Shown here in pieces: positions 1,939 through 63,740 of a stretch of DNA of 64,000 bases. The notes beneath the pieces were generated by a model. It was not told where the DNA came from and searched no databases. It was given only the letters and a program-made list of their open reading frames with translations. The translations under genes were made by a program, and so were the position numbers. The DNA lies in IMG/VR virus record IMGVR_UViG_3300032516_000005; one strand, written 5' to 3'. Origin of the DNA: a virus. How positions within the stretch are numbered: position 1 is the stretch's first letter; every line of letters starts with the position of its first letter.

Positions 1939-1954
1939 GATCTTGCAAGCGATC
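1939..1954. promoter_or_regulatory. GATC-N8-GATC palindrome (degenerate)
   Basis: GATCTTGCAAGCGATC upstream of TAGTAT and the start at 1909(-). Confidence 0.6.
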
Positions 1955-2939
1955 ACGTGTTGGACTTGGCTGTGCCCCGTACAGCCCGGCCGCGGCACAG
2001 ATCACGGCTCAGGGCTTGCCCTGCGAGGGTACTCAACGTCGGCGCGTACTGACTCAGTAGCAGGTCGACCTCGCGTGTCTTCTCAACCACGTACGGTTGC
2101 ACATCACGCAGGAACGCAAGCACCGCCTCACGTCGCGTCAACGACCACTTCAACTGATGTCGCCGAGGCGGCTGCTTTCTACAAAAGCGCAAGACACCGC
2201 CGTAAACCGCATGCAGCCGCAGCAGCGCCTCCACGCGTGTCTGGTTGAAAGCGATCGCGAGATGCCATGTCGTTGATTTCATGCGCAAATCTACCGACCC
2301 GTCGCCGTCGAAGTAGCCTGCGAAGTAGGCAAGCTCGGTCGACGTCACCGTTGGCCGTTCGAATGCTGTGGCACCCCGTCGGGGACGAAGACAGATCAAG
2401 GTTCCAGCGGCACGCGCACGTTGGTAATGCAACGTACACAGCTGCTGCGCACGCGCTGCTCGACGACAACCGTCAGTCGTACAACGAGGATGTTGCGGTC
2501 GCTTCGACTTTGCCTCCAAGGGCAAATTCCGCGAAGTCAGTGCGATCTTCTTCATACGTTTCAGATCGTGGATTAGTTGCTGCGCTTCAGGCGCAGGCAT
2601 CCGCGTAGAGAAACGTGTGAGCACAGCTTCAACCTGTGCGCGTTTCTCTCCGAGATACGGTCGGATGTCTTCGAGGAAGCACGCCACGATGTTGAAGCGC
2701 GACAGCGCCCAACTTGTTTTCTCACGCCAATTTGCGCGCTGACGTTGGATCACGTTCAACGAACCGCCGTAGAAATCGTGTAGCTGTTGGAGGACGACCG
2801 GGTTCGTTTGCCCGAAGTCGACACGTGTACGCCAGCTCCGACCGGCGTTAATCGGGAACACGCCGATCGATCCTTCGGCATCGAAGTAGCCCGCGAAATA
2901 GGCGCAACGATCAGTAGTTGGACGACGTGGCGCAGTCAT
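1953..2939 (-). CDS. double-motif LAGLIDADG homing endonuclease with central Cys/His linker
   Basis: AYFAGYFDAEGSI and AYFAGYFDGDGSV motifs; CTTDGC...LCTLHY between the two halves. Confidence 0.9.
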   Translation of the reverse strand: MTAPRRPTTDRCAYFAGYFDAEGSIGVFPINAGRSWRTRVDFGQTNPVVLQQLHDFYGGSLNVIQRQRANWREKTSWALSRFNIVACFLEDIRPYLGEKRAQVEAVLTRFSTRMPAPEAQQLIHDLKRMKKIALTSRNLPLEAKSKRPQHPRCTTDGCRRAARAQQLCTLHYQRARAAGTLICLRPRRGATAFERPTVTSTELAYFAGYFDGDGSVDLRMKSTTWHLAIAFNQTRVEALLRLHAVYGGVLRFCRKQPPRRHQLKWSLTRREAVLAFLRDVQPYVVEKTREVDLLLSQYAPTLSTLAGQALSRDLCRGRAVRGTAKSNT

Positions 2940-3081
2940 CAGCGTGATCGTGCTTATCACATTGCGTAACCACGACGGATCAAAAAACGCTCAGGGCTTC
3001 CAGCGTTAGCACGGTTCGTCTAGAGTCAGTCCCAACAGCGATCGACCTTCGACCGCCGCCGATCCTTACACGGAGAAGATC

Positions 3082-3618
3082 ATGGGCCGCCTACCACTTC
3101 AATTTGCCGGTAAGGACGTCACGTTTCGCATACCCTATAATATTGCCGCCGAGCTGGATGTCGGTCCGAACCTCTCGGGCATCGTGTTCCCCGAGGCGAG
3201 TTTCCTGCACAACGTCGACAAGCCGTTCGAGATCCATCGCGTGATCATTCGGCTCACGGCAAAGGGAACGCCGGCCACGTTCGTCACGCCGACGGTGCTC
3301 GAACCGCAACCTACGACACTCGAAGAGCGCGTGCGGATGCGTATCCTCGACTTCTCGAAGAACGAGAACCTCACGAAGTCATCCACGTTCGTGAGCCTTC
3401 TGCTCAATCGCAACACAGGTGCCTGGGATCTCGAAGAGCCGTACACGATCGTGCGGTCCGAAGGTTTTCAGGTGCAGATCGACACGCAGGACTATCCAGC
3501 GGTCGTCATCCTCGATGCCACCATCCAACCCGAACGTGTTGACGTCCAGTTCGTGCGCATCGAACTCAACTTCCAGGGGTATCTTGACATCATCGGGCCG
3601 CCGAGCGAAGTACGCTGA
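3082..3618 (+). CDS. putative virion structural beta-strand-rich protein
   Basis: GGAG SD, alternating hydrophobic beta pattern, upstream of fibre-like genes. Confidence 0.6.
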   Translation: MGRLPLQFAGKDVTFRIPYNIAAELDVGPNLSGIVFPEASFLHNVDKPFEIHRVIIRLTAKGTPATFVTPTVLEPQPTTLEERVRMRILDFSKNENLTKSSTFVSLLLNRNTGAWDLEEPYTIVRSEGFQVQIDTQDYPAVVILDATIQPERVDVQFVRIELNFQGYLDIIGPPSEVR

Positions 3619-3632
3619 GCTGACGAGTCGCG

Positions 3633-3938
3633 ATGCAGAACTCCCACTTTCAGACGATCACGGTCCTCCCCGTTGGATCAACGACACCGACGACGATCAT
3701 CAAGGCGGGAAAGCATCCAATGCGCGCCGTCGTGAGCAACGTCGGGCCTGTACTGGTCTTCGTTGCTGCAACGACGACCGACTTGGCGCCGTTGCCGTCG
3801 ACGGCGACGTACCGGCTGTTTCCCGGTGAGCAAGCCGTGTTCGTTGCGGCACCAAAAGAAGGTCTCTACGTCATCGGTGCTGCGGTGGGTGGCCTGGTGT
3901 CGGTCTCGGATTCTGAAGCGCTGCCTGTAGCGCTGTGA
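3633..3938 (+). CDS. small beta-sandwich protein, putative structural
   Basis: Operon position; similarity to the C-terminus of 1133..1909. Confidence 0.65.
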   Translation: MQNSHFQTITVLPVGSTTPTTIIKAGKHPMRAVVSNVGPVLVFVAATTTDLAPLPSTATYRLFPGEQAVFVAAPKEGLYVIGAAVGGLVSVSDSEALPVAL

Positions 3939-3949
3939 AAGGATTTGCC

Positions 3950-61918: not shown

Positions 61919-61934
61919 GATCGCGTGCGCGATC
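61919..61934. promoter_or_regulatory. GATC-N8-GATC palindrome
   Basis: GATCGCGTGCGCGATC between divergent genes. Confidence 0.8.
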
Positions 61935-61986
61935 CAGCTTGCGTAGCGCTACGTCAGCGACACTGTCGCCTGATAGACTGCGCGGC

Positions 61987-62700
61987 ATGTCCAAGTGCAT
62001 CAGCGTTATCTGTACCGTTCTGCTTCTCGGTTGTCGGCCGTGTCCAACACCTGCACCGACGCCAACGCCAACGCCCGTGCTGCCTGCGGACGCAGCCGTG
62101 CCGGTGCAAGGCACCCAGGTGACGCTGACGATGGCGCAAGTCGCGCTCGCGAATCCCGCGACCACATCGGTCTACTTCAGCTTCGGCGCAGATTCGAAGA
62201 TCCAAGCAGCCGATTGGGCGAGCTTCTGTACCATGACGAGCCCGCTGACCTGCAACTTCACGATGACAGGATCGCAAGCGCTACCCAACCCGCAGGGCAA
62301 GTACCTCAACGTGACGTTGGCGTTCGGTGCGGCTGTTGGTTGCGGTGGGACCAAGGCTGAGATCAACGTCAACAACCCGACCTGGTTCGACATCCTCGAC
62401 GTCAGCCTGGTCGACGGCTACTCGAACAAGATCGAGATCGACTACACGCCGCCAGGCGGCACGACCGCGACGAAGCTCGGACCGCCGCTTGGCAAAGACG
62501 GCAACGAGAAGGTCTTGGGCGTCTTCCCCTACGGCTGCGACATCTGCACCGCGCGCCAAAAGCCACCGTGCGGGATCGCGGCCGGTGGCACCGGTTGCAA
62601 AGCCGGTACGCAGTACAAGCCCGACGTCCCGTGTCAGTTCCAAGGCGCTGTCAAAGGCGGCGGTGGGACCGTCGTCGTGACGCTGTTGTCGACGCGCTAG
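61987..62700 (+). CDS. thaumatin-like (GH64-TLP superfamily) lipoprotein
   Basis: Lipobox LLLGC, PT linker, TKAE...DILDVSLVDGYS, Cys-rich. Confidence 0.7.
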   Translation: MSKCISVICTVLLLGCRPCPTPAPTPTPTPVLPADAAVPVQGTQVTLTMAQVALANPATTSVYFSFGADSKIQAADWASFCTMTSPLTCNFTMTGSQALPNPQGKYLNVTLAFGAAVGCGGTKAEINVNNPTWFDILDVSLVDGYSNKIEIDYTPPGGTTATKLGPPLGKDGNEKVLGVFPYGCDICTARQKPPCGIAAGGTGCKAGTQYKPDVPCQFQGAVKGGGGTVVVTLLSTR

Positions 62701-62982
62701 ATGATCACGGTCAATTGCCTGTGCGGTGAACGGCTCAAGATCGACGCCGCGTACGCGAAAACGCAGCTACGTTGGAAGGGCTTGTTCGGCTTCGGGCAGC
62801 ACGTGAGTGATCCCAAGGCGTTCGTCATGCGCTGGCTCGTGACCGTTCATGGCTGGAGCTACACGGGCGGCCGCATCGCCAAGACGACGTTGACGATGAC
62901 GTGTCCGCGGTGCTGCGCGAAGTCACCGAAGTTGCCTGACGACGACCTAGACGTCGATCCAGTCGCTCATTTTGGGCCGTAG
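62701..62982 (+). CDS. zinc-ribbon hypothetical protein
   Basis: CLCG...CPRC. Confidence 0.6.
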   Translation: MITVNCLCGERLKIDAAYAKTQLRWKGLFGFGQHVSDPKAFVMRWLVTVHGWSYTGGRIAKTTLTMTCPRCCAKSPKLPDDDLDVDPVAHFGP

Positions 62983-63708
62983 TCGTTCGTACGTGTTGAG
63001 CGCCGCGTCGGCGGTTGCCTTGCGAACACTGGGCAGCTTGATCTTCATGTCTTCGATCAGGTCGCCAGGAACGTCGCCGACCACGTCGTACCCGCCGCCG
63101 GCACGTCGCTTGATCAAGTCGATCCGCGCGATGTGATCGTAGAGCGACCGCGCAGCCGAGAGTGAGAAACAGACCTCGGTGGCGTCGCGCTGCATCGAGT
63201 CGCGATCGCTGTACATGACCCCGCCAGGCATGTCGTGCAGCACGAGGATGTAGCTGGTGACGCGCAGCTTGGCCGCACTCGTGTTGGCCTGCTTCGCGAG
63301 CCCGTAGATCGCCTTGCGATACGCGTCCCCGAGCTTCGTCTTCAACTCGCGCGTGACCGTGTAAGCCCGGTGGGTCTCGCGATCGTGCGGCCAGACGTGA
63401 TTCTGTTGATCGGCTTGCAGCTTGTCGTACGCCGCATCATGAATTTTGTAGAGCTGATCGAGTGCAGCGTGGATCGGCTTCCACGTCGGTAGGCCCTGCA
63501 TGTAGCGCAGATAATCTTCGCCGCTGTGGATGATCGGGGCGATCGAGTCGCCGAACCACACGTGACAATCCTCGCCGCGGCGACGGTCGCCCGCGAACTC
63601 GCCGCCACGGCCACGCACTTCGCGCGTCTCCAGGATGTCCACCATCTCCCACGGTGAGACGGACCGGAACAGGACACGCAGGCGATTGGGGCCCTTGTCA
63701 GCTAACAC
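62947..63708 (-). CDS. hypothetical protein, possibly ART-fold
   Basis: LFRSVS..E..DI...; start 7 nt after TAGCCT next to palindrome 63725. Confidence 0.65.
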   Translation of the reverse strand: MLADKGPNRLRVLFRSVSPWEMVDILETREVRGRGGEFAGDRRRGEDCHVWFGDSIAPIIHSGEDYLRYMQGLPTWKPIHAALDQLYKIHDAAYDKLQADQQNHVWPHDRETHRAYTVTRELKTKLGDAYRKAIYGLAKQANTSAAKLRVTSYILVLHDMPGGVMYSDRDSMQRDATEVCFSLSAARSLYDHIARIDLIKRRAGGGYDVVGDVPGDLIEDMKIKLPSVRKATADAALNTYERLRPKMSDWIDV

Positions 63709-63724
63709 GGTTTCGAGGCTACCA

Positions 63725-63740
63725 GATCGTGTCCGCGATC
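63725..63740. promoter_or_regulatory. GATC-N8-GATC palindrome, bidirectional
   Basis: GATCGTGTCCGCGATC flanked by TAGGAT(+) and TAGCCT(-). Confidence 0.85.

Follow-up and report, generated by a model that had tools for sequence, protein, structure and literature searches.

The sequence analysed here is a 64-kb window (64,000 nucleotides, numbered from its first letter; hereafter W) of the viral record IMGVR_UViG_3300032516_000005, in which many genes are headed by a copy of a 16-bp palindrome, GATCGCG-NN-CGCGATC. The usual order is palindrome, short spacer, a TANNNT −10 box, 6 nt (5–7) and the ATG or GTG of a coding open reading frame (ORF), and we verified this order at the palindromes at 5925, 10508, 12217, 18187, 41531, 42158, 44701, 47357, 51308, 56400, 58624, 61919 and 63725 (Table 1). 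These 13 palindromes serve 16 promoters, 3 of the sites (42158, 63725 and 61919) being divergent and each serving two promoters. As described in an earlier note on this DNA, the start codons follow the −10 box without a Shine–Dalgarno (SD) sequence, for which there is no room because the box ends about 6 nt before the start. Roughly half of the host-type promoters of this virus have the core of the palindrome, GATCGC-N4-GCGATC, built into them.

The earlier note had proposed a genome-wide palindrome embedded in promoters beside −10 boxes and leaderless starts, and such a palindrome is real: the 7-2-7 pattern GATCGCGNNCGCGATC (GATCGCG-NN-CGCGATC) occurs 9 times exactly in the window and not once in 100 dinucleotide-preserving shuffles, and with up to 2 mismatches it yields 28 matches, compared with 2.4 expected. 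A de novo count of all 6-mer palindromes identified GATCGC-N4-GCGATC as the enriched unit, and this core, GATCGCNNNNGCGATC, is present in 14 exact copies (0.06 expected); a variant box, GATCCC-N4-GGGATC, showed no enrichment in this window. Some 16 copies of the palindrome had originally been listed, of which 14 are sound (9 exact and 5 with a single mismatch), one, at 18187, is decayed yet present at orthologous promoters, and one, at 1939, is doubtful. When the exact core sites of the window and of three related genomes described below (G1, G2 and G8) are pooled, the resulting 101 sites, or 202 site-sides, give the profile cGATCGC-[G/T][C/G][G/C][C/A]-GCGATCg. Within the heptamer architecture, position 7 is the least conserved, and 79 of the 114 mismatches in intergenic near-sites fall at the centre positions 7 and 10, whereas in near-sites within genes the mismatches are evenly spread. 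Conservation is no stronger for the GATC word than for the GC directly after it, so that the constrained unit is a pair of GATCGC hexamers separated by one helical turn, as is usual for the site of a dimeric helix-turn-helix protein.

The placement of the sites is equally specific. With genes called by a self-trained codon model, 10.9% of the window is non-coding, and 12 of the 16 sites with at most 1 mismatch lie in this fraction (own gene calls; binomial p = 3e-9), so that copies are not equally frequent inside coding sequences. The number rises to 14 of 16 once starts are reset to the leaderless ATG or GTG, two sites having appeared to be in genes because the longest-ORF start had been used. 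The remaining two, at 24534 and 29401, are inside genes. Plain GATC, CGCG and GCGATC words show little or no bias towards non-coding DNA.

Spacing between the palindrome and the −10 box had been described as variable, but it is less so than stated. Among the 202 site-sides, 35 have a TANNNT box at 4 or 5 nt, compared with 0.64 expected per offset; a second peak at 9–10 nt comprises 13 sides, and a thin tail extends over 12–20 nt. At offset 4, the box is preceded by TGn at 16 of 21 sites, making it an extended −10 element (TGnTANNNT). Leaderless promoters have a gap between −10 box and start codon of 6 nt in 32 of 47 cases, 7 nt in 12 and 5 nt in 3, and the complete leaderless geometry is found on 23.5% of site-sides but at only 0.7% of random positions. 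The centre of the palindrome is at about −24.5 in the main class, near −30 in the second class and at about −43.5 at the promoter of the gene starting at 8450. Upstream of the palindrome there is no −35-like signal, either in the flank profile of the pooled sites, which is flat, or at individual promoters of the window. The dyad is rightly placed for a promoter of the MerR type, which has it within an over-long spacer of 19–20 bp flanked by recognisable −35 and −10 boxes, yet the −35-like hexamer upstream is lacking.

To place the virus, 8 kb of the window were compared by megablast with 50,697 phage records, without a match, which indicates that it does not belong to a described phage cluster. 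A scan of IMG/VR for the 7-2-7 motif returned three large contigs, G1 (196 kb, 44 sites with at most 1 mismatch), G2 (221 kb, 30 sites) and G3 (79 kb, 11 sites), none of which contains a copy of the reversed pattern used as a control. Further relatives, G5–G10 among them, were found by way of a conserved 440-aa protein; the more distant ones have few or no copies. G1 and G2 show synteny with the window (65–80% nucleotide identity) and hold 44 and 36 exact core copies, respectively, compared with 14 in the window (the three relatives span 10–44). Per 100 kb, exact core sites number 21.9 in W, 22.5 in G1, 16.3 in G2, 4.7 in G8 and 1.1 in G5 (a single site in 95 kb), and 0 in G6, G7 and G10; for G9 the count, made with the 7-2-7 pattern only, is 11 sites with at most 1 mismatch. 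The palindrome is kept at the promoters of orthologous regulon genes, although the proteins are only 31–72% identical and the flanking DNA has diverged. Its distance to the −10 box drifts by 3–5 bp between orthologues, as at the gene starting at 12254, where it is 9 nt in the window, 4 nt in G1 and 7 nt in G2.

Two arrangements in the relatives are particularly informative. In G5, a bare −10 box and a leaderless ATG persist at two orthologous promoters: the first has no palindrome, an extended −10 box and no −35 element; the second retains only a half-site, lacks TGn and may have a weak TTG where a −35 element would be. Four copies, in G1 (140560 and 143238) and G2 (64137 and 66972), occupy about +5 to +20, after the transcription start but before the SD, of near-consensus promoters of the form TTGACA/TTGAAC-N17-18-TAGCTT. 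We also considered whether G5 has a replacement palindrome and rejected the only candidate, the lone enriched palindrome of that contig being the repeat of an array of clustered regularly interspaced short palindromic repeats (CRISPR). The array occupies about 93.5–95.0 kb of the 95-kb contig, at its end, and has about 21 repeats with the core CCGATCAGCCGACGATCGG and a period of 60–74 bp.

From the motif, its placement and its conservation we infer, with considerable confidence, that promoters of this virus incorporate the palindrome as an operator to which a protein binds. The earlier view that it is the site of a dimeric regulator rather than a sigma −35 element is borne out by half-sites one helical turn apart, by mismatches confined to the centre and by conservation of the site despite drifting spacing. 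Very probably, the palindrome is the docking site of a single master regulator that times a large block of genes.

A candidate for this regulator is encoded in the window itself. In a Pfam scan of the 109 window proteins, one clear DNA-binding regulator was found among the matches listed (25 of 39 families), a 139-aa protein (Table 1) that has ten invariant Cys/His within its first 76 residues and a C-terminal GerE-type helix-turn-helix but no receiver domain; the Cys/His-rich N-terminal domain is possibly a zinc or redox module. The protein has about 37 full-length homologues in metagenomes, the recognition helix shows conservation in a set of 28 homologues, and among solved structures the NarL DNA-binding domain comes closest to it (PDB 1JE8, E = 6e-15). 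The architecture of the viral site, two inverted heptamers 2 bp apart, matches the 7-2-7 layout of NarL. The NarL DNA-binding domain binds such inverted heptamers as a dimer. Furthermore, the GerE-type protein is present only in W, G1 and G2, the genomes with 16–22 sites per 100 kb, and is not detectable in G3 (a 45% fragment) or in G5, G6, G7, G8, G9 and G10. On this circumstantial evidence, the 139-aa NarL/GerE-type protein appears to be the best candidate binder of the palindrome. Next-nearest to it are NarL/FixJ response regulators, 63–68% identical over the helix-turn-helix, some of them from metagenome-assembled genomes of Kofleriaceae, and these nearest relatives of the regulator, in the Myxococcota, are a weak hint that the host may be a myxobacterium.

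Two other searches for a regulator were unproductive. Phylogenetic profiling (present in G1, G2 and G8, absent from G5, G6 and G10) returned seven genes, none with a DNA-binding domain: a ribonucleotide reductase, a SLOG-family protein and five without a Pfam match, one of them similar to small membrane proteins. A small HTH_17 protein encoded outside the window was rejected on its distribution, its orthologues occurring in G1, G2 and G5 but not in G8, a pattern that does not fit that of the palindrome. Its gene lies beside a palindrome in G1 and beside a degenerate copy in G2, and G8 has a palindrome beside a separate HTH_17 gene.

As to the sign of regulation, we tentatively favour repression. 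The reading that we prefer, to which we give somewhat less than an even chance, is that the palindrome is the operator of a repressing, dimeric helix-turn-helix regulator in an uncultivated, high-GC virus of about 200 kb, with the 139-aa protein as the candidate. In the main class, where the palindrome ends 4–5 bp before the −10 box, a dimer on the site would occupy about −32 to −17; elsewhere, copies adjoin a −35 box or fall between a canonical promoter and the ribosome-binding site. The bound protein would block RNA polymerase and keep self-sufficient extended −10 promoters off until repression is relieved, speculatively by titration on replicated genomes, through the Cys/His-rich domain or by the methylation state of GATC. 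The regulator would be the virus's own NarL/GerE-type protein, encoded in a block that has no strong copies of the palindrome and has promoters resembling those of extracytoplasmic function (ECF) sigma factors. Repression is favoured, first, because of the palindromes that lie downstream of canonical promoters, at +5 to +20, in G1 and G2. Second, extended −10 promoters do not require contact with a −35 element, and the extended −10 boxes make the promoters self-sufficient. Third, G5, without a NarL-type gene and almost without palindromes, keeps bare core promoters. Finally, the palindrome-to-−10 spacing drifts between orthologues, and offsets 5 bp apart, which place the site on opposite faces of the helix, would be better tolerated by a blocker than by an activator.

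Several points weigh against repression by the 139-aa protein. The late genes of well-studied phages are under positive control (PMC10695390), and the late promoters of phage P1, with an Lpa site at −22 and no −35 box, have nearly the geometry of the main class (PMC3152322). The tight offset of 4–5 nt, found in about 60% of promoters, is what would be seen of an integral promoter element. G8 and G9 have 7–11 promoter-type palindromes but no detectable GerE-type gene, so that the 139-aa protein may not be the binder, or a host factor may play a part; nor is there a strong or autoregulatory palindrome at the gene of the 139-aa protein. A repressor encoded in a palindrome-poor block would, moreover, need a relief mechanism, and none was identified.

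The main competitor is positive control, in which a late-promoter activator replaces the missing −35 element, for instance the NarL/GerE-type protein recruiting host polymerase to −10-only promoters; we regard this as possible, if on balance doubtful. MotA at the middle promoters of T4 is an activator of this kind, acting on −10-only promoters. The position of the main class near −24.5 without a −35 box, with its offset held at 4–5 nt (35 of 202 sides), suits such a role, as does the site at about −43.5 of the 8450 promoter, the classic position of a class II activator. That the candidate regulator gene lies outside the regulon would suit a cascade, and there are the general rule of positive late control (PMC10695390) and the precedent of P1, where 11 late promoters have an inverted repeat, centred at −22, to which Lpa binds (PMC3152322, PMC10695390). 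However, activation is impossible from the copies at +5 to +20 behind near-consensus promoters, orthologous spacing drifts by 3–5 bp, and the promoters have extended −10 boxes. Moreover, two orthologous genes of G5 are still headed by bare −10 leaderless promoters that lack the site, and one of these has an extended −10 box. For activation to hold, the regulator would thus have to be dual in function; a protein that acts both ways, like GerE or phi29 p4, would accommodate the evidence for repression as well as that for activation.

We consider it unlikely that the virus borrowed the site of a host NarL-family response regulator, in which case the viral 139-aa protein would be a copy taken from the host, a rival of the host regulator or of no relevance. 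The similarity of its helix-turn-helix to NarL/FixJ regulators, including some of Kofleriaceae, and the promoter-type sites of G8 and G9 without a viral GerE-type gene are in keeping with a host factor. Against this, the matches listed from 185,579 scanned species genomes are only single and scattered, and in G262, the host-like Myxococcota genome whose regulator is closest, 17 copies were inspected, of which at least 16 lie in long coding frames, for example in ELIARAIH codons, and none of the 17 was seen next to a promoter. A host regulon is accordingly rejected for the genomes searched. G262, of about 8.3 Mb, contains the 16-mer 61 times, inside genes, as in the ELIARAIH motif of AAA+ (sigma-54-type) activators, and such in-gene copies indicate that codon usage alone can generate the 16-mer.

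The repression that we favour could also be coupled to replication. In this extension, which is improbable as a whole, the NarL-type domain, taken over from a response regulator of a host and joined to its Cys/His-rich sensor, would bind double-GATC operators in just one methylation state, or be titrated by fresh copies of the genome, and dozens of leaderless promoters, self-sufficient in themselves, would fire only once the DNA has replicated; if so, late genes would be under negative control, the opposite of what holds in well-studied phages. GATC is about 3 times over-represented in the window (681 copies compared with 221 expected), and likewise in G1, G2 and G5, with or without the palindrome. 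Dam-family methyltransferase genes occur in G1, G2, G5 and G8 but not in the palindrome-free G10; the family is not among the 25 of 39 Pfam families listed for the window proteins. Given these genes in the relatives, the half-sites are probably methylated. The earlier suggestion that methylation control is conceivable therefore keeps some ground, but G5 retains Dam with almost no palindromes, so that the two are not tightly coupled, and methylation, possible but not required, may modulate the system and cannot define it.

A pure methylation switch without a dedicated regulator, in which the paired GATC would be read by polymerase or by a SeqA-like protein with affinity for hemimethylated DNA, and expression tied to replication, is harder still to credit. 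Every strong copy has two GATC words 12 bp apart, and the distribution of Dam-family genes, with their absence from G10, would agree with a switch of this kind. However, the GC after GATC is equally invariant, making GATCGC rather than GATC the conserved unit, GATC is over-represented genome-wide without promoter association, and G5 has Dam yet one exact core site. Least probable is a site for packaging, partition, recombination or restriction that merely avoids coding sequence, an idea to which the resemblance of a 16-bp palindrome to parS and many enzyme sites and the two tyrosine recombinase genes of the window lend some colour but which is at odds with the sharp registration with −10 boxes, the sharing of sites by divergent promoters and the promoter-specific conservation.

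In phiC31, conserved inverted repeats in multiple copies are bound by one phage regulator. Multi-copy promoter boxes and operators as such are already known, from P1, phiC31 and the stoperators of Cluster A phages (PMC9283540, PMC6550527). The latter, as in L5, are likewise short sites in tens of intergenic copies that answer to one phage regulator (PMC9283540, PMC6550527), but they are asymmetric 13-mers of transcribed regions, bound by a monomer, that block elongation in an orientation-dependent manner, whereas the site described here is symmetric, sits on the core promoter, in most cases ahead of the start, and hardly occurs in the blocks presumed to be early; nor did we identify an immunity repressor. 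The late promoters of P1, served by Lpa and host SspA, share dispersed units, a good −10 box, the lack of a −35 box and an inverted repeat near −22, compared with about −24.5 here (PMC3152322, PMC10695390). The repeat here differs in its length of 16–18 bp and its GATCGC half-sites, and in its position, which may also be 9–10 or 12–20 nt from the −10 box or behind a canonical promoter; the promoters themselves have extended −10 boxes and are mostly leaderless, and no relative of Lpa was found, none having been searched for. NarL/GerE regulators on 7-2-7 sites (1JE8) have the same heptamer architecture, and a receiver-less protein of this type is encoded in the window. Its presumed half-site is unrelated to the TACYYMT of NarL, and the viral protein has a Cys/His-rich N-terminal domain instead of a receiver. 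NarL and GerE, a small dual regulator of B. subtilis, activate or repress depending on the position of the site. The leaderless −10-only promoters of Actinobacteria, Deinococcus-Thermus and their phages also have TANNNT 6–7 nt before the start, no SD and frequent TGn, but the added palindrome is specific to this virus group. New here are the sequence, the fact that it is combined with leaderless promoters of the extended −10 type, and its occurrence in a lineage of viruses not described before, for which a NarL-type protein is a plausible binder.

Table 1. Palindrome copies and other features of the 64-kb window.
Position (strand)	Feature	Match	Arrangement	In relatives
1939–1954	Doubtful copy, GATCTTGCAAGCGATC	3 mismatches		No palindrome at G1/G2 orthologous promoters
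5925–5940	Palindrome, GATCGCTTGCGCGATC	1 mismatch	16 nt, TGcTAGCAT (−10 5957–5962), leaderless ATG 5969 (+)	Identical palindrome in G1 and G2, spacing 15–16 nt
8343–8358	Upstream copy of tandem pair	1 mismatch	Serves minus-strand promoter, TAGGAT 8337–8332, 5 nt off	Same pair in G1, 117131 and 117183
8387–8402	Exact copy of tandem pair	Exact	Ends one base before −35 TTGACC (8404–8409); TTGACC-N18-TACATC (−10 8428–8433), SD GGGAGGAG, ATG 8450 (+), leadered	Arrangement conserved in G1 (117131) and G2 (92649)
10508–10523	Palindrome	1 mismatch	10 nt, TGgTAGGCT (10534–10539), ATG 10545 (+)	Palindrome in G2, none in G1
12217–12232	Palindrome	1 mismatch	9 nt, TGaTACCGT (12242–12247), ATG 12254 (+)	Palindrome in G1 and G2
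18187–18202	Decayed copy, GATCGCTCCTGTGATC	3 mismatches	17 nt, TAGAAT (18220–18225), ATG 18233 (+)	1-mismatch copy in G1, 2-mismatch copy in G2; spacing 17–18 nt
22220–22235	Weak variant GATCGC-AGGA-GCGATC		Intergenic gap in otherwise palindrome-free block	
31267–31282	Weak variant, like 22220		Inside gene	
32942–32957	Weak variant, like 22220		5 nt before GTG start	
41531–41546	Palindrome	Exact	Minus side: 20 nt, TGaTAGGCT, ATG 41498	
42158–42173	Palindrome	Exact	Divergent: forward TAGTAT 42177–42182, ATG 42190; reverse TGaTAGTCT 42153–42148, ATG 42141	Same divergent arrangement in G1, 69062
44701–44716	Palindrome	Exact	Minus side: 4 nt, TGgTAGGCT, ATG 44684	Exact copy at G1 orthologue
47357–47372	Palindrome	Exact	9 nt, TGgTACCGT (47382–47387), GTG 47394 (+), 585-aa gene	Best-matching related genes: near-palindromes in G1 (12 nt) and G2 (about 8 nt), degenerate copy in G5
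51308–51323	Palindrome	Exact	Minus side: 3 nt, TAGGAT, ATG 51292, 574-aa gene (phrog_2319)	
56400–56415	Palindrome	Exact	4 nt, TAGACT (56420–56425), ATG 56432 (+)	
58624–58639	Palindrome	Exact	4 nt, TAGACT (58644–58649), ATG 58656 (+), 619-aa HATPase_c_3 protein	
61919–61934	Palindrome	Exact	Minus: 5 nt, TTAGAT, ATG 61901; forward: 39 nt, TGaTAGACT, ATG 61987	
63725–63740	Palindrome	1 mismatch	Divergent: forward TAGGAT 63745–63750, GTG 63757; reverse TGgTAGCCT, GTG 63708; gene calls at window edge uncertain	
26830–27249 (−)	Candidate binder, 139 aa	PF00196 (GerE-type helix-turn-helix), E = 3.6e-17		
4804, 15159, 17652, 35919, 36616, 39483 (all −)	Second promoter type	Six copies	All in gene orientation	4 copies in G1, 5 in G2
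24019–24903 (−)	Tyrosine recombinase (Phage_integrase)			
52887–54485 (−)	Tyrosine recombinase (Phage_integrase)			
17728–18069	(GLGI)n repeat protein			

The tandem pair at 8343 and 8387, whose copies are 44 bp apart centre to centre, stands before what looks like the strongest promoter of the window, and the gene starting at 8450 looks highly expressed. It belongs to a paralogous tandem family (8450–9166 and 9170–9922) with two invariant cysteines and a C-terminal membrane anchor that ends in basic residues; the family has 2–3 tandem copies in G5 and G1 and single matches in G2 and G8. A motif read from the alignment, PLxVDGxxGxxT, resembles peptidoglycan-binding sequences, and Pfam returned no match. 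A capsid protein, which we had considered for this gene, was rejected in view of the peptidoglycan-binding-like motif and the C-terminal anchor in the family alignment.

Most regulon proteins have no match in Pfam or PHROGs, the recognisable products, apart from the paralogous 8450/9170 family, being a GDSL hydrolase and an endonuclease/phosphatase in the operon starting at 18233, the HATPase_c_3 protein and a DUF5661 protein. The designation of the regulon as a late or virion programme, made in the earlier note, is thus a presumption that the window does not show, most of the genes being without recognisable function. Two blocks presumed to be early, 13.3–17.6 kb and 21.9–39.4 kb, lie entirely on the minus strand and encode a tyrosine recombinase, DUF2786/DUF7168 and DUF6011 proteins and the regulator. 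Strong copies of the palindrome are indeed lacking from them, but weaker N4 variants are present, at 22220 and 32942 between genes and at 31267 within one, so that the blocks are poor in the palindrome rather than free of it.

These palindrome-poor blocks have a second type of promoter, CTCTYGCTTTGTTT overlapping GAAT-N15/16-RCGTC(T/A), which lies 33–85 nt before gene starts, in some cases only 7–10 nt. Its shape resembles that of ECF-sigma promoters; no Sigma70_r2 domain, and hence no virus-encoded sigma factor, was found in five relatives.

Our findings provide a regulatory map for undescribed, large, uncultivated, high-GC viruses whose proteins are mostly unrecognisable, with two classes of promoters, one of the host type with an extended −10 box and gated by the palindrome, the other ECF-sigma-like, and with one plausible regulator. 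The palindrome marks the heads of transcription units and the true leaderless start codons, which improves annotation. If it turns out that a repressor acts through the site on late or structural genes, this would contradict the rule of positive control of phage late genes. The sites, the candidate protein and the link to Dam can all be tested in vitro without growing the virus.

Some further features of the window and its relatives deserve mention. The two tyrosine recombinase genes, which may serve integration, the resolution of dimers or inversion, are found in what is a large, apparently lytic-style virus. Many small proteins, mostly encoded behind palindrome promoters, start with a run of Arg/Lys followed by LG (MKRRQLG, MKRKRKALGG, MAKRRR...LGD); they include the products of genes starting at 41498, 56432 and 12732 in the window and at 68758, 69062 and 138258 in G1, and one is the small HTH_17 protein of G1 and G2. 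In addition to the (GLGI)n repeat protein, a small ORF contains in-frame short tandem repeats, GATCACGAAC/GCGATCACGAAC, at 29389–29416.

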